The translations under genes were made by a program, and so were the position numbers. Positions 47,101-58,992 of a stretch of DNA of 64,000 bases are shown here, piece by piece; the first letter of the stretch is position 1, and each line of letters opens with the position of its first letter. The DNA is taken from sequence record OK335775.1. One strand, written 5' to 3'. Below the pieces are notes generated by a model, which saw only the letters and a list, made by a program, of their open reading frames with translations, ran no database searches and was not told the DNA's origin. Origin of the DNA: Escherichia phage PSD2002.

Positions 47101-47112
47101 TATTTATAAATA
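47101..47112. promoter_or_regulatory. Palindromic divergent late promoters TATTTATAAATA serving gene 51 (minus) and gene 26 (plus)
   Basis: TATAAATA readable on both strands within a 12-nt perfect palindrome; RBS and ATG on each side. Confidence 0.7.
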
Positions 47113-51419: not shown

Positions 51420-51427
51420 TATAAATA
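51420..51427 (+). promoter_or_regulatory. Late promoter TATAAATA for inh-hoc
   Basis: Exact TATAAATA about 33 nt upstream of ATG at 51461. Confidence 0.6.
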
Positions 51428-51433
51428 TAGTTA

Positions 51434-51441
51434 TATTTATA
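51434..51441 (-). promoter_or_regulatory. Late promoter (TATAAATA on minus strand) for uvsW
   Basis: Plus-strand tatttata about 30 nt upstream of uvsW start codon. Confidence 0.5.
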
Positions 51442-51460: not shown

Positions 51461-52132
51461 ATGGATACTCAATATATTGAAGAGCTTCGTGCACTCGAAG
51501 ATAAAAAAGAAGCTAAAGCTAAGTTAATCGAATACGGCGAACAGTTCGGTTTAAAACTTAAGAAAACCCGTTCGTTTGATAATTTGATTATCGATATCTC
51601 TGAAGGCCTTAAAGCCTTGGCTGACGAACCACTCCCAGAAACCGAAGGGTTGTCCATTTCTGATTTGATTGATGCTGCCGACGAACTTACAGGTGCTAAC
51701 GAATTTGTTGATGGTGCTGAACCAGCTAAAGAAGAAGCCACCCTGTTGTTCGATGCCCCTGAGGCTGCAGTAGAAGTCGTTGAGGTAGCCGAACTTCCTA
51801 AGGTAGAGATTATCGAAGAGGATGTTCCATTTGACGAAGAGAAATTCAAAGGGGCTATAGCCAAGGTTGTTGAATCTGAAAAACCTGTATTCTCTTTACC
51901 TGAAAACTTCAGTCCTAATCTTTTGCTTATCGGTAAGAACCCAGGTTATTGCACCGTTCCTTGGTGGATTTACCAATGGATTTCTGAGACTCCGGATTGG
52001 AAAGAACGTCCAACTGCTTTCCAACATCCTTCTGCCCACCAAACATTATTTAGTCTGATTTATTACATTAATCGTAATGGTTCAGTATTAGTACGTGAAA
52101 CTCGTAACTCATCTTTTGTCACTTTAAAATAA
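51461..52132 (+). CDS. inh: Probable Inh (prohead protease inhibitor) homologue
   Basis: 223 aa acidic protein in the T4 inh position between uvsW and hoc; identity by synteny only. Confidence 0.45.
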   Translation: MDTQYIEELRALEDKKEAKAKLIEYGEQFGLKLKKTRSFDNLIIDISEGLKALADEPLPETEGLSISDLIDAADELTGANEFVDGAEPAKEEATLLFDAPEAAVEVVEVAELPKVEIIEEDVPFDEEKFKGAIAKVVESEKPVFSLPENFSPNLLLIGKNPGYCTVPWWIYQWISETPDWKERPTAFQHPSAHQTLFSLIYYINRNGSVLVRETRNSSFVTLK

Positions 52133-53417: not shown

Positions 53418-54425
53418 ATGTTCAAGAAATATAGCAGTCTCGAAAACCACTACAACAGTAAGTTTATCGAAAAACTCCGTACTAACGGTTTGACTGGTGG
53501 TGAATGGGTAGCACGTGAGAAGATTCATGGAACCAACTTTAGTTTAATCATAGAACGTGACGCAGTCACATGCGCCAAGCGCACTGGCCCTATCCTCCCT
53601 GCTGAAGATTTCTATGGTTATGAAATTTTACTTAAGAACTATGCTGATTCTATTAAATCTGTTCAACATCTAATCGAATCGATTAATTACCAGTCATATC
53701 AGATTTACGGCGAATTCGCTGGGCCAGGTATCCAGAAGAATGTGGACTATGGTGATAAAGACTTTTATGTGTTCGATATCCGAGTTACTAAAGAAGATGG
53801 CTCAGAATCTGTTCTAACCGATACATTGATGGAAGCCTTCTGTATTATCCATAAGTTTAAGGTAGCTCCATGTCTGGCCACTGGTAGCTTTGAAGACCTT
53901 ATTAAACTTCCTAATGATTTTGATTCAGTTGTTCCTGATTATAATTTTGCAGTGGATAACGCAGGCTTAACTATTGCAAACTCAACCGATTTTATTCCTA
54001 AGGTAGAAGGTAAGGTATTCACGGCTGAAGGCTTTGTATTGAAACCTGATGTTCCTACCTGGCTTCCAAACGGAAATCGTGTGGCGATTAAATGTAAGAA
54101 CTCTAAATTCAGCGAGAAGAAAAAGTCTGATAAGCCTATTAAAGTTGCAGTGGTATTGTCCCAAGACGATATGGATTTGATGTGGCAATTCACCGATTAT
54201 GTGACTGTTAACCGCATTAACAATGTCATCAGTAAGATTGGCGAAGTATCGCCGAAGGATTTCGGAAAGGTGATGGGCTTGACAGTCCAGGATATCCTTG
54301 AAGAAGCCGCCCGTGAAGAATTGGAATTAACTGATGCGGAAAATCCCGTTGAAGTTAAAAAGCAGCTCGTTGAGTGCGTAAAAGAAACATTAAGACATGT
54401 ATGGATTGAACTAGTATCCAAATAA
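53418..54425 (+). CDS. rnlB: RNA ligase 2
   Basis: 335 aa; [12 protein letters not shown]...[10 protein letters not shown] (ligase lysine motif KxHG) ...[13 protein letters not shown]... matches T4 Rnl2. Confidence 0.85.
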
Positions 54426-54431
54426 ACGATA

Positions 54432-54459
54432 AAGGGACCTTACGGTCCCTTTTATTTTT
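54432..54459. terminator. Bidirectional rho-independent terminator between rnlB and gene 24 paralogue
   Basis: agggacc-ttac-ggtccct followed by TTTTATTTTT; U-rich on both strands. Confidence 0.7.
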
Positions 54460-55732
54460 CTAAAGGCGGTAATTTTACGCCGAGATAAGAACTCAATTGA
54501 CTTTGATTAGCCATTTTGTCCATATCAGAACCATCAATAATGCGGGCTTCTTTATCGTCCTTAGCGACGGTATAAGGGTTTGCAGACAATGCATAACGAG
54601 CAAGCAATGCTACTGTAGGTTGTAAGCTTTCCGGGTCAACAATAACCTTAAATTCACCAACTGAAGTATCACCTTCTTCGTCAACCACATTCAAACCTTC
54701 CGTATAAGGCGCATAATATAAAGATGCGACCGTCTGTCCTTCACCCATCTGGGCATTTACACCAACAATAACATAATCACATGGACTATTCATATCAGCA
54801 TAAAGTGGTAGGCCATTCTTTAATATACCATAAGCCAATTCGTCCTGGTCTTCCTTTTTCTCAACCCAACCAGAGGCGGCGAGAATAGCAGCACAACGAG
54901 AACTAGCTACTGCATAAGTCCCGGCAAAAGAAGTCTGTCGTTGGACGGCAGAGTTCATCTCACACATATAATAATATAATGTGCGAGCACGGTCCTGGGC
55001 ATTATCGTAGCGAGGGTTGGTAAGGTCTAATACACCCTTTTCAGAAACACCCTGGACTTTAAAACGAGAGCTCACGGTAATTAATGACTGTAATACATCC
55101 TTATTAATTTCTTCTGCCATTTGAATGCCTAGCAGATTTTCAACAAAATTAGGAGCATTAAACCCGTTAGATTCTAGGTCTTGGGCTAATTCGACTGTCA
55201 ATGAAGTTTTCAGTTTACGTGATTTAACTTCAGATTGCCATTTGTCGATACGGAATCCGGTTTCAGCAATTTCAGGATGGCCTTGTTCAAATTTAGAAGT
55301 AATAGCAGCATCCGACACCATACGGATATGGCCGGCTGCCACTGCTTCAGAAATAACTTCGCTGAGGTTGGTTTCTGTGGTTCCGGCGAAAGGAGATGCT
55401 TCTAGAACTTTAAACACTACGCTTTCAAACTGGAACATATCACCGACCGCATAAGCTGTAGATGAATCAGTAAATTCTGGAATATTTTCACGTTCCGTCA
55501 TACCAATCTGGCCCGCAAATGTTGCTCCACCAAGATAAGTCATTTTGTCGTCAGGATTCAGTACACGTACCCCATACAGAGCAGCAACCGGTTGATTTGT
55601 TTTTTGTTCAGCAACTAGGGCTTTAAAGATTCGTTTATTAGTTGCTTGGGTGTATGAAAGAAGAGCAGGACGGCCAACCGAGCTGGCAGCCGTCAATGTG
55701 GATTCTTTAATTAGGTCTACAATCTTAGACAT
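54452..55732 (-). CDS. Capsid vertex protein gp24 paralogue (second copy)
   Basis: 426 aa; about 50 percent identical along whole length to the adjacent gp24 (shared blocks SRKLKT.LTVELAQD.ESNGF.AP.F, INKDVLQSLITVS, YAPYTEGL, RYALSANPYTVAKDDKEAR.ID). Confidence 0.8.
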   Translation of the reverse strand: MSKIVDLIKESTLTAASSVGRPALLSYTQATNKRIFKALVAEQKTNQPVAALYGVRVLNPDDKMTYLGGATFAGQIGMTERENIPEFTDSSTAYAVGDMFQFESVVFKVLEASPFAGTTETNLSEVISEAVAAGHIRMVSDAAITSKFEQGHPEIAETGFRIDKWQSEVKSRKLKTSLTVELAQDLESNGFNAPNFVENLLGIQMAEEINKDVLQSLITVSSRFKVQGVSEKGVLDLTNPRYDNAQDRARTLYYYMCEMNSAVQRQTSFAGTYAVASSRCAAILAASGWVEKKEDQDELAYGILKNGLPLYADMNSPCDYVIVGVNAQMGEGQTVASLYYAPYTEGLNVVDEEGDTSVGEFKVIVDPESLQPTVALLARYALSANPYTVAKDDKEARIIDGSDMDKMANQSQLSSYLGVKLPPLEK

Positions 55733-57015
55733 TAATCAGCCTCGTAAATAATTGCCGGAAGTTTAACGCCAACCAGATAAGACATATTGCTCTGTCCAGC
55801 CATTAAATCCATATTGGTTGCATCGATAACACGAGCTTCTTTATCGTCTTTAGCCACGGTGTACGGGTTAGCTGATAGTGCATAACGAACCATCAGAGAA
55901 ATAGAAGGTTGTAATGAATCCGGGTCAACAATAACCTTATAAGCACCGACGTGTTCTTGGTCATCTAAATCTAAGCCTTCGGTATAGGGAGCGTAGAAAA
56001 TAGAACCGACAACTTCATTACCGCCGTAATTCTCTTTAACACCAACGGTAACATAATCTAATGGACTGTTAACGTCACAAAACAGAGGCAGACCATTCAA
56101 CAAATATCCGTATGCAGTTTCCGGAAGCCAATTATTATCTTCGGGTTTATGTTTTAACCAGCCAGAACCTGCAAGCATTGCAGCCACACGACTTGAAGCC
56201 ACAACAAACGTGCCAGAATAAGAAGTAGTTTTCTGGATTTCAGAATTCATCTCACAAACGAGTTCATAAAGTTTACGTGCAGATTCAGGAGCACTGTCAT
56301 AAGACAAATCGATGATGCCGTTATCAGATACACCAGTAACTTTATAACGTTTGGATACGGTTATTAGAGATTGCAGAACGTCTTTATTAATTTCATCTGC
56401 CATTACTGTAGCCAAGAGGTCTTCTAAGAACGCCGGCGCGTCAAAGCCATTTGATTCCATATCCTGCGCTAATTCTACAGTCAAAGCCGTCTTCAATTTA
56501 CGGGTCTTAACCGGAGCATTCCATTTATTAACCTGGAATACAGCATCAGAGATTTCTACATCACTCGCTTCAAATTTAGTGGTATGGGCAGCATCAGGAA
56601 CCAGACGACATGTTAATGACACTAAACCTTCTTGAAGAGCATCAGCCAATTCTGTGGCGCTAGTGGACGCGAGTGGGCTTGCTTTAAGAGCCTTATAAAC
56701 CACATTCTGGTACTTGAAATATTCACCCTGAGCAATCGCCTGGGCCTTATCTGTGAGTTCTGGGATAGTTTCACGGTCTTTAGAACCAACTTCACCACCA
56801 TAAGAGGCACCTGTCTGGAAACTAAATTCATTATCAGGGGTAAGATATTTGACACCATACAGTGCAGCAATAGGCTGGCTAGTACGTTGTTCGGCGATAA
56901 TATCACGGTAAATCAATTTGGTTGTAGCACGGGTCAAAGCAACAAGATTAGGGCGACCCAATGAGTTGCTGGAAGTAGTTGTTGACTCGCGCAGTAATTC
57001 GTTAATCTTTGCCAT
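55732..57015 (-). CDS. 24: Capsid vertex protein gp24
   Basis: 427 aa; MAKINELLRESTTT...GRPNLVALTRATTKLIY... matches T4 gp24; late promoter upstream. Confidence 0.9.
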   Translation of the reverse strand: MAKINELLRESTTTSSNSLGRPNLVALTRATTKLIYRDIIAEQRTSQPIAALYGVKYLTPDNEFSFQTGASYGGEVGSKDRETIPELTDKAQAIAQGEYFKYQNVVYKALKASPLASTSATELADALQEGLVSLTCRLVPDAAHTTKFEASDVEISDAVFQVNKWNAPVKTRKLKTALTVELAQDMESNGFDAPAFLEDLLATVMADEINKDVLQSLITVSKRYKVTGVSDNGIIDLSYDSAPESARKLYELVCEMNSEIQKTTSYSGTFVVASSRVAAMLAGSGWLKHKPEDNNWLPETAYGYLLNGLPLFCDVNSPLDYVTVGVKENYGGNEVVGSIFYAPYTEGLDLDDQEHVGAYKVIVDPDSLQPSISLMVRYALSANPYTVAKDDKEARVIDATNMDLMAGQSNMSYLVGVKLPAIIYEAD

Positions 57016-57043
57016 TGCGCTTTCCTTATTGAGGGTATATGTT

Positions 57044-57051
57044 TATTTATA
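57044..57051 (-). promoter_or_regulatory. Late promoter (TATAAATA on minus strand) for gene 24
   Basis: Plus-strand tatttata about 30 nt upstream of gene 24 start. Confidence 0.65.
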
Positions 57052-57057
57052 AAAGTT

Positions 57058-57087
57058 GTTTACAGCAAGATTCTCACATGTTACTAT
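57058..57087 (+). promoter_or_regulatory. T4-type early promoter
   Basis: gtttac + 17-18 nt + tactat then GAGGAG RBS. Confidence 0.55.
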
Positions 57088-57116
57088 AGACATATCAAAA
57101 CATGAGGAGATTAAAA

Positions 57117-57383
57117 ATGAACAAGTTAAACTTTATTCGTACTACTCTTTCCGCTCTTGATAAAGACATCAAAGCTCTGGTAGAAAAATTCGGTAACAAT
57201 CCTAATGGTAATGCAGTGAATGCCTTAGTTAAGAAATACGAAGCCATGGCTTATGCTACCGACTTCTGGTGGAACGGTGAATACTCTACCCATACCAAAG
57301 ACAAATCTGGTAACTGGCTGAAAATCCAAGAAAATCGTATTGACTTCCGTGATATCATCAACCGTCGAGTTAAGATTGCATAG
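57117..57383 (+). CDS. Hypothetical early protein inserted between late genes 23 and 24
   Basis: 88 aa from ATG after GAGGAG RBS; own early promoter and terminator; T4 has segD at this position. Confidence 0.5.
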   Translation: MNKLNFIRTTLSALDKDIKALVEKFGNNPNGNAVNALVKKYEAMAYATDFWWNGEYSTHTKDKSGNWLKIQENRIDFRDIINRRVKIA

Positions 57384-57398
57384 TACAGAAACAAGAAT

Positions 57399-57428
57399 GG
57401 GAGACCGAAGTCTCCCATAATAAGGTTA
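57399..57428. terminator. Bidirectional terminator (gene 23 and small early gene)
   Basis: gggagac-cgaa-gtctccc stem-loop with U-rich flanks on both strands. Confidence 0.7.
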
Positions 57429-57432
57429 TATC

Positions 57433-58992
57433 TTAGATACCTTTAACATATACACGACGGAAGTAACCATTCAGACCAAGGCTGTTAACGATGTCAGGCA
57501 TACCGCTCTGAATACGTTTGGTAGGAGCCTGTGCAGACGGGTCAGCGAACGGGTTGATACCGATACCGTAACGAGTTTTGAAGCCCATTACCGGTTGGAA
57601 GTTCTTCGGATCGGAACCACGCAGCGGGGTCAGTGCAACGTATGGAGCATAGTAGATACCTGCGTCCATTTCGTTAGCGCCTTTATAACCGATGGTGAAG
57701 TAATCGGAACGTGCATACTGGTCGATGTAAACGCGATATTTACCACCAAGAACACCGGCAAATACTGCTTTGGTTGTGTCAACGTTGAAACCTTGACCCA
57801 GACCTTGAGCTGCATAACTTACAGAAGTATCAACTGCAGCCAGTACGTTAACTACGTTACGGGAAGCGATGATGAAGTTACCAGCACCACGACCGGTCTG
57901 ACGAGCGATTTCGGCTGCTTCTTTATCAATCTGGAACAGAAGGGCTTTAAAGCTCTCACCGGCCCAACGAGCACCACGGATATCAATCGGGTCCTGGAAG
58001 TCAAACACACCAGCTTTAGCGCCAACGGTGTTGGTCATACCAGATTTACCAACCTGTGCAGAGTAGTTAATCCAATCGATAACTTCACGGTTGATTTCGA
58101 GCATAATTTCGGTAGCAAGGATACCGGACAGTTCAGCATCTGCATCCATACCGTGTACTGCACGAAGGTCCTGTGCCAGTTCGATAGAGTAGCTTGCTTT
58201 CAGCTGACGGGATTTAGCTTCGATAACTTGTTTGTCGATGCGGAAGCCCATTTCGTTCCACGGGTTATCGGTAGAACCGTTAAAGCCTTCCTGAAGTTCG
58301 GCGATAGAAGTAGCCATACCTTCAGCCAATTCAGCCAACTTACCAGCTTCAATCAAAGCGGTAACAGCAACATCCAGTTTAGCGGCATCAGTAGCAGCAG
58401 CATCAACGGTTACGGCTTCGACAGCCTGGAAGTGTGCAGCACCGGTAGCTTCGAAGAAGTGAGAATAAATTTTACCAACTTCCAGAACTTTGCTTGCAGC
58501 CAGTGCTTCGAAAGTTTCAGCAGCACCCTGACCAGAGAACATAGCGTCTGGAGAATACATCGGATGGAAAGCTTCTTTAGCGCCAGAAGCGATAGGGTCT
58601 TTACCATAAACTGCACGAAGGGCAAATACCTGGCCGGTAGGGTTATTCAGAGGCTGAACACCACAAATATCAAAAGCAATCAGATGAGGAATAGCACGAC
58701 GAACCATACCCATTACTGCCGGCCCAATCTGAGTTACAGCACCAGAAGTCTGGCCAGCTGCGATATTGGTAGCATCATAACCGTGGTCACCACCAATTTC
58801 AGCTTCGGTCAGGAAAGAACCAAATGCTTCAGAGATTTTTTCATCACGATATTCCGGAGCAGTCAGGATGTCTTGTTCCTGGTTTTCGAAAATTTTAGCG
58901 ATGATAGCTTGTTTAGAAGCACCCACGATTTCAGGAAGGGCTTCGTTTTCCAGCAGAGCGGACCATTTTTGAACTAATGCATTCTTTTTCAT
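57433..58992 (-). CDS. 23: Major capsid protein gp23
   Basis: 519 aa; near-identical blocks to T4 gp23 (EIGGDHGY, ATNIAAGQTSGAVTQIGPAVMGMVRRAIP, MGFKTRYGIGINPFA, FRRVYVKGI). Confidence 0.95.
   Translation of the reverse strand: MKKNALVQKWSALLENEALPEIVGASKQAIIAKIFENQEQDILTAPEYRDEKISEAFGSFLTEAEIGGDHGYDATNIAAGQTSGAVTQIGPAVMGMVRRAIPHLIAFDICGVQPLNNPTGQVFALRAVYGKDPIASGAKEAFHPMYSPDAMFSGQGAAETFEALAASKVLEVGKIYSHFFEATGAAHFQAVEAVTVDAAATDAAKLDVAVTALIEAGKLAELAEGMATSIAELQEGFNGSTDNPWNEMGFRIDKQVIEAKSRQLKASYSIELAQDLRAVHGMDADAELSGILATEIMLEINREVIDWINYSAQVGKSGMTNTVGAKAGVFDFQDPIDIRGARWAGESFKALLFQIDKEAAEIARQTGRGAGNFIIASRNVVNVLAAVDTSVSYAAQGLGQGFNVDTTKAVFAGVLGGKYRVYIDQYARSDYFTIGYKGANEMDAGIYYAPYVALTPLRGSDPKNFQPVMGFKTRYGIGINPFADPSAQAPTKRIQSGMPDIVNSLGLNGYFRRVYVKGI

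Follow-up and report, generated by a model that had tools for sequence, protein, structure and literature searches.

Bacteriophage T4 is the reference for prolate head assembly, and its head carries one vertex protein, gp24 (gp, gene product), in 55 equivalent copies. The ten N-terminal residues of T4 gp24 are cleaved (PMC9546572), and the mature protein, gp24*, starts at residue 11 in the structure 5vf3. In the present study, we analysed a 64,000-nucleotide (nt) stretch of Escherichia phage PSD2002 (sequence record OK335775.1; hereafter the window), which has two gp24 genes where T4 has one. Gene 24a (copy A; 55732–57015, minus strand) encodes a protein of 427 amino acids (aa) that starts MAKINELLRESTTT and is the orthologue of the T4 capsid vertex protein, and gene 24b (copy B; 54452–55732, minus strand) encodes a divergent gp24 paralogue of 426 aa that starts MSKIVDLIKESTLT. 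The two are old, conserved paralogues common to at least six lineages, neither recent nor specific to this phage. With moderate confidence, we propose from the sequences that 24a and 24b form a conserved vertex pair in which B is a second processed subunit.

Paired genes of this kind are already known: database records annotate them, and they have been referred to in the literature. The window belongs to Dhakavirus and is more than 99.7% identical to Bp7, QL01, WG01 and E33. A megablast search with positions 54300–57200 gave 99.2–99.9% identity to 11 records, including vB_EcoM-E33, QL01, WG01, Bp7 and IME540, with JS10 at 93% and JS98 at 85%, all being Dhakaviruses. The public records of JS98 and JS10 name the two genes '24a' and '24b gp24 head vertex protein', the VR7 record uses '24(1)' and '24(2)', and those of VR5, VR20, dhaeg and CGG4-1 have 'capsid vertex protein I/II'. 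The genome announcement of phage Melville mentions the same tandem duplication for Melville and S16. That announcement was the only relevant result of our open literature search, which found no paper on the role of the second gp24 copy. Matches to the phiKZ 'gp24' literature concerned an unrelated protein, and the virion proteome of Klebsiella phage ValerieMcCarty, a single-copy Jiaodavirus, is uninformative on 24b. The pairs of JS98/JS10, Bp7, QL01 and WG01 lie at the same locus as that of the window, with the same order and junction, and the window differs from the JS98/JS10 pair (85–93% DNA identity) only at the allele level. The window and JS10 carry one type of B allele and JS98, IME281 and LHE83 another, with a synonymous substitution rate (dS) above 1 between the types. 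An earlier note on this DNA had described a tandem duplication of gene 24; the pair is real, whereas a view of it as new or phage-specific does not hold. The duplication itself is routine annotation, and nothing changes for this genome. What gives the pair its interest is that a large group of close T4 relatives has retained an additional vertex paralogue, under strong constraint, throughout a long period of evolution.

To place the two proteins relative to the vertex protein gp24 and the major capsid protein gp23, we compared A and B with each other and with both T4 proteins. The coordinates and the homology of the two adjacent, full-length, gp24-like minus-strand open reading frames (ORFs), as first described, were both confirmed. 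A and B aligned by BLASTP over their full length with 55% identity and 77% positives (E = 2e-177), upholding the paralogy and correcting the initial estimate of approximately 50% identity. Copy A is, as had been stated, close to T4 gp24 (70% identity, with the first 14 residues the same), and B is 57% identical to it. Against the gp24 structure 1yue, A gave E = 8e-198 and B, over residues 1–423, gave E = 5e-151, whereas each matched gp23 at only ~1e-11. Both proteins matched phrog_138, and both matched PF07068 (Gp23) far above its cut-off of 24.4 bits (330 bits for A and 325 bits for B).

The N-termini of both copies are also of the gp24 type. Codons 8–10 of A (L-R-E; 56986–56994, minus strand) form a predicted motif for the gp21 prohead protease, with the cut after Glu10; it is identical to residues 8–10 of T4 gp24 and is followed by Ser. 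Codons 8–10 of B (I-K-E; 55703–55711, minus strand) retain an I-x-E motif, again followed by Ser, and I-x-E-S was kept in all six aligned B orthologues of five named genera. The (L/I)-x-E motif is conserved in the A and B clades and aligns with the cleavage site of gp23. Judged by this motif, A and B are predicted to have a 10-residue propeptide, as opposed to the 65-residue propeptide of gp23. The bypass-24 positions of gp23 are found where subunits meet in the core of the capsomer, and they determine whether gp23 is able to form pentamers (PMC9546572). At these positions (381, 384, 387 and 420) A, B and every other aligned gp24 have R, A, A (T in Ac42) and G, whereas gp23 has N, N, A and K.

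Because of the gp24 match, the propeptide motif and the gp24-type residues at the bypass positions, B is, by sequence, a vertex-type and not a hexamer-type subunit; the possibility that the second copy might not be gp24-like at all was answered by the alignment, in which B is clearly gp24-like and not gp23-like. From its 57% sequence identity to 1YUE, B is predicted to have the HK97 fold and the inserted I domain of that structure. An AlphaFold2 model of B built from a 39-sequence alignment was poor (mean predicted local distance difference test score, pLDDT, 55; predicted template modelling score, pTM, 0.57). A rough Foldseek ranking with this poor model put three T4 gp24 chains at the top (E = 2e-31 to 5e-26), followed by gp23, but with TM-scores of only 0.46–0.54. 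Since the I-x-E/S motif and the gp24-type A-domain interface residues are kept, B should form pentameric vertex capsomers, and we consider it quite likely that B is a processed subunit of the virion vertex.

Given this evidence, it is very improbable that B has left the vertex and now serves at hexamer positions, as a decoration protein or as an assembly factor absent from the mature head, and we ranked this last among three alternative roles. Such a departure would agree with the long stem branch of B, which would reflect a burst of change after duplication, and our searches of the literature and PDB found no structure or proteome that puts B at a vertex. However, B is full length with all domains, has the 10-residue propeptide with its motif, keeps the gp24-type residues that decide between pentamer and hexamer, and resembles gp24 far more than gp23, both in E-values and in the Foldseek ranking from the poor model. 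The sequence evidence thus favours a processed vertex subunit over the decoration role that the earlier note had raised beside specialised vertices and hetero-pentamers. There is a precedent for a duplicated capsid protein that takes over a subset of lattice positions, namely the duplication of gp23 that gave rise to gp24, and the bypass-24 mutants of gp23 follow the same logic (PMC10580926, PMC3012670, PMC9546572). That step separated hexamer from pentamer positions, and the two proteins are now ~22–26% identical, whereas the duplicate 24b keeps the pentamer-type residues. Any specialisation of B would therefore lie among vertices or within pentamers.

We examined whether both genes are intact and under selection by comparing A and B in nine genomes. 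All 18 genes were intact, and the ratio of non-synonymous to synonymous substitution rates between orthologues (dN/dS; Nei–Gojobori), where dS was not saturated, was 0.04–0.09 for A and 0.05–0.10 for B. Between A and B, dN was ~0.37 and dS was saturated; at the DNA level the two copies are 60% identical, and the longest exact shared run is 21 nt. Intact genes and strong purifying selection in nine genomes mean that B is not a pseudogene, and an assembly artefact such as a misassembled repeat is excluded, since the copies are 60% identical and share no exact run longer than 21 nt; the two simplest objections to the pair are thereby disposed of. Apart from the adjacency of two similar genes, nothing spoke for an artefact, a pseudogene or a recent duplication confined to this phage, and the tandem pair is present in approximately 100 or more independently sequenced phages as well as in metagenomes; we regard this explanation as refuted. 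It is almost certain that 24a and 24b are a real, functional paralogue pair. Gene conversion between A and B was also rejected, as the A–B identity within a genome was no higher than that between genomes (~60–62%). The alleles of the two genes are mosaic in one Dhakavirus: LHE83 (locus L018, 153–2717) has a window-type 24a (dS 0.33) together with a JS98-type 24b (dS 0.11, compared with 1.11 to the 24b of the window), indicating recombination breakpoints in or between 24a and 24b.

The age of the pair was addressed with neighbour-joining trees (Kimura distances, 200–300 bootstraps) of first 23 and then 29 gp24 sequences. In both trees all of the downstream copies, including those of FBB1-like and metagenomic contigs, fell into one clade with 100% bootstrap support. 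The upstream copies of five genera likewise formed one clade (100%), which was sister to T4, Mosigvirus and Karamvirus gp24 (95%). The upstream copies of the FBB1 type branched just outside the group of A with T4, Mosigvirus and Karamvirus (99%), mirroring a split within the B clade. The stem of the B clade was long and its attachment had only 34–57% support. Nine alignment sites and a long 'KPEDxxxL' loop unite A with T4, Mosigvirus and Karamvirus against B and the other single-copy phages, whereas a single site unites A with B. These counts disfavour the view that B arose from A by duplication in an ancestor shared by the five genera. The simplest reading of the sequences suggests that the duplication is older than the split between the T4/Mosigvirus/Karamvirus line and the Dhakavirus-type line, with loss of B in the first of these lines, because its gp24 proteins nest among the A copies. 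A recent horizontal acquisition of B was rejected, as the G+C content at third codon positions is similar in the two genes (31% for B and 34% for A) and the A and B trees co-diverge; B may have come by an old transfer from another T4-like lineage.

The distribution of the pair was consistent with this age. Using B as the query, tblastn returned 91 phage records with an identity of at least 80%, and in a sensitive DNA search 129 records matched 80% or more of the length of the B gene. Two copies are present in Dhakavirus (JS98, JS10, LHE83 and IME281), where they lie between gene 23 and rnlB, and in Gaprivervirus (VR7), Kanagawavirus (Q7622), Gelderlandvirus (CF-SP2) and Marfavirus (PhiKpNIH-6), whereas one copy is found in T4, Jiaodavirus JD18, Mosigvirus HX01, Karamvirus CC31, Winklervirus, Tegunavirus, Ac42, Bragavirus, Krischvirus, Slopekvirus, Tulanevirus and Kanagawavirus PEi20. 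In a collection of 5.8 billion proteins, B-like proteins formed a continuum from 90% down to 66% identity, and Erwinia phage FBB1 was listed there with two proteins, P0019 (68%, B-like) and P0072 (57%). The contigs of P0016, P0019 and P0020 (in the 67–70% range) carry gene 23, an A-type gp24 gene and a B-type gp24 gene with a 1-nt overlap. Thus the comparison with related genomes that the earlier note had recommended revealed the same tandem pair in five genera and in FBB1-like and metagenomic contigs. B lay directly downstream of an A-type gene in every context examined, and a B gene lacking A was never found among them. In all two-copy loci examined (the window, JS98, JS10, LHE83, IME281, VR7, Q7622, CF-SP2, PhiKpNIH-6, L020, L021/L022 and L023), the stop/start junction ranged from −4 to +1 nt.

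Two further observations were made at these loci. Kanagawavirus, a single ICTV genus, differs internally in gp24 copy number, with a tandem pair in Q7622 (L003) and a single gene in PEi20 (L024), the latter being of the A/T4 type and 71% identical to the A copy of Q7622. In the FBB1-like and metagenomic two-copy contigs (L020, 2676–4506; L021, 4890–6427), two extra co-oriented genes directly follow 24b, one of them with a faint collagen-repeat match, and in VR7 (L002, 465–1748) a protein with collagen triple-helix repeats adjoins hoc; these could be additional head-surface proteins.

The organization of the locus suggests that the two genes are expressed together. An exact match to the T4-type late promoter consensus, TATAAATA (57051–57044, minus strand), lies 28 nt in front of the 24a ATG, in agreement with the late promoter originally assigned to the upstream copy, and no second TATAAATA match was found between gene 23 and rnlB, including inside 24a ahead of 24b. 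A Shine–Dalgarno-like AAGGAAA for 24a was read from the sequence at 57021–57027 (minus strand), and a GAGG Shine–Dalgarno for 24b lies within the 3′ end of 24a (55740–55743, minus strand), 7 nt upstream of the 24b ATG. The downstream gene had been said to adjoin the first with no spacer, and the two in fact overlap: one base is common to the 24a TAA (55734–55732) and the 24b ATG (55732–55730), giving a TAATG stop/start (55730–55734, minus strand; context GAT TAA TG TCT) that is predicted to couple their translation. Beyond 24b, a perfect 9-bp stem (54431–54452) scores as a terminator on both strands, overlaps the 24b stop and is common to 24b and the convergent gene rnlB (RNA ligase 2; 53418–54425, plus strand). 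Upstream, a terminator-like hairpin (57397–57418, minus strand; 9-bp stem with five GC pairs, then a T-rich tail) just 3′ of gene 23 marks the boundary of the unit. Promoter, 24a, TAATG, 24b and hairpin thus have the appearance of a single late unit, bicistronic and with coupled translation.

This arrangement bears on whether B might be an alternative or back-up vertex protein, largely redundant with A and used under particular conditions such as temperature, host or escape from a capsid-sensing defence. The pair is present in the VR phages, which are low-temperature phages, and several relatives have lost B and are nevertheless viable. In T4, gp24 adds stability of the head towards heat, acid and protease (PMC10580926). 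However, with one promoter and coupled translation no separate regulation was visible, redundant copies rarely stay at a dN/dS of ~0.05 over such deep divergence, and B has fixed non-conservative changes (L34R, D38A, P244Q, A359E and L415Y) that point to a distinct role. A back-up function, which we ranked second among the alternative roles, is therefore improbable.

Next, we asked where B differs consistently from all other gp24 proteins. A site was taken as B-specific if it was fixed in the B clade (at least five of six sequences) and fixed differently in A and single-copy gp24 (at least 12 of 13). Twenty positions were found, and 11 of them lie in residues 8–72 (L8I, A26S, L27Y, T32N, L34R, Y36F, D38A, K56R, Y57V, F66Y and Y72F), clustering in the N-arm (residues 26–38) and the first I-domain linker (residues 56–72). 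The A clade has only eight clade-specific changes, all conservative. In the expanded head of T4, residues 11–20 of gp24 reach onto the neighbouring gp23 hexamer, residues 26–29 form a β-pairing with an I-domain linker that belongs to the next gp24 subunit of that pentamer, and the I-linkers contact other parts of their own capsomer as well as neighbouring capsomers (PMC9546572). We infer that the B-specific changes, many of them aromatic swaps, fall on both sides of one intra-pentamer contact, as would be expected if the B–B interface were self-matched.

Homopentamers of B would thus be the most likely arrangement, because the B-only substitutions lie in elements that pair between neighbouring subunits of one pentamer; such homopentamers on a subset of the vertices are a tentative proposal that we hold at less than even confidence. 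The first-ranked alternative is that A and B co-assemble into mixed pentamers at every vertex. The tight translational coupling, together with the conserved junction of −4 to +1 nt, suggests production at a fixed ratio, and B was never found without A in the contexts examined, both of which would suit a mixed capsomer. A five-membered ring, however, cannot alternate two subunits, so that A–A, A–B, B–A and B–B interfaces would all be needed; the B changes fall on N-arm residues 26–29 as well as on I-linker 1, the two partners of a single contact within the pentamer, which fits a self-matched B–B interface better; and the independent shuffling of A and B alleles among Dhakaviruses, as in LHE83, speaks against tight A–B co-adaptation. 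Mixed pentamers are, on this evidence, unlikely.

Taken together, the predicted course of events for a processed vertex pair would be as follows. Both proteins would be made late from one message in roughly coupled amounts, would enter the prohead at fivefold positions, and would have their first ten residues trimmed by the gp21 protease. A would act as the canonical vertex protein, being the copy kept whenever only one remains, and B as a specialised second vertex subunit; more speculatively, B would assemble into homopentamers at some of the 11 non-portal vertices and would not mix freely with A. A still more doubtful extension is that heads with the pair have fivefold vertices of two sorts that differ chemically, with B placed, for example, at the single apical vertex or on one five-vertex ring and A elsewhere, the single gp24 of T4 being a secondary simplification after loss of 24b in the Tequatrovirus/Mosigvirus/Karamvirus line.

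Several points weigh against a specialised vertex role for B. All 55 gp24* subunits of T4 have essentially one conformation (PMC9546572), so that geometry does not obviously call for a second vertex protein. A single copy suffices in T4, Mosigvirus, Karamvirus and PEi20. Searches of the literature and PDB found neither virion proteomics nor a structure for any two-copy phage, and the gp24 structures in PDB are from T4-derived capsids only (1yue, 5vf3, 7vrt, 7vs5 and 8gmo). The expression, cleavage and virion presence of B are predictions from its sequence, and the clustering of B-specific sites was read against structural descriptions of T4, not a model of this phage. The trees, furthermore, are neighbour-joining trees of limited taxa in which the deep position of B has the 34–57% support given above.

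The likeness of A and B to T4 gp24 (1YUE; in situ 5VF3, 7VRT and 7VS5) extends beyond the full-length match, the 10-residue propeptide motif and the gp24-type A-domain interface residues to the position after gene 23 and late-promoter control. The number of genes differs, and B has its 20 clade-specific fixed substitutions and its own indels: NP-R after DLT, GDT in a flexible loop, and a KPED loop shorter by four residues. If it is true that B marks a subset of vertices, it would provide a handle on how a prolate capsid tells cap, shoulder and apical vertices apart, and a second independent display site for the engineering of T4-type nanoparticles. Loss of 24b in the T4 lineage, if true, would slightly revise the view of a single gp24 as the standard state.

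The neighbourhood of the pair is that of the classic T4 head-gene cluster. Upstream, gene 23 (57433–58992, minus strand) encodes a major capsid protein of 519 aa that is 84% identical to T4 gp23, and the late head genes follow the order 21, 22, 23, a small opposite-strand ORF, 24a and 24b. Beyond 24b, on the other strand, are rnlB, a 24.3-like ORF, hoc and inh. The small ORF between gene 23 and 24a (57102–57383, plus strand) encodes 93 aa and matched phrog_6003, a family of unknown function (E = 8e-50); it is conserved at the same position in JS98 (orf173) and VR7 (ORF190c). In HX01 this slot is occupied by a small hypothetical ORF, likewise on the opposite strand. The same slot holds a homing endonuclease annotated as segD-like in the Marfavirus locus and another homing endonuclease in Tegunavirus.

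Finally, the late-promoter consensus TATAAATA occurred 15 times in the window, compared with 6.8 matches expected. At two places, 47101–47112 and 51420–51441, matches on both strands lie close together, and the plus-strand match at 51420–51427 is just upstream of inh, which starts at 51461.

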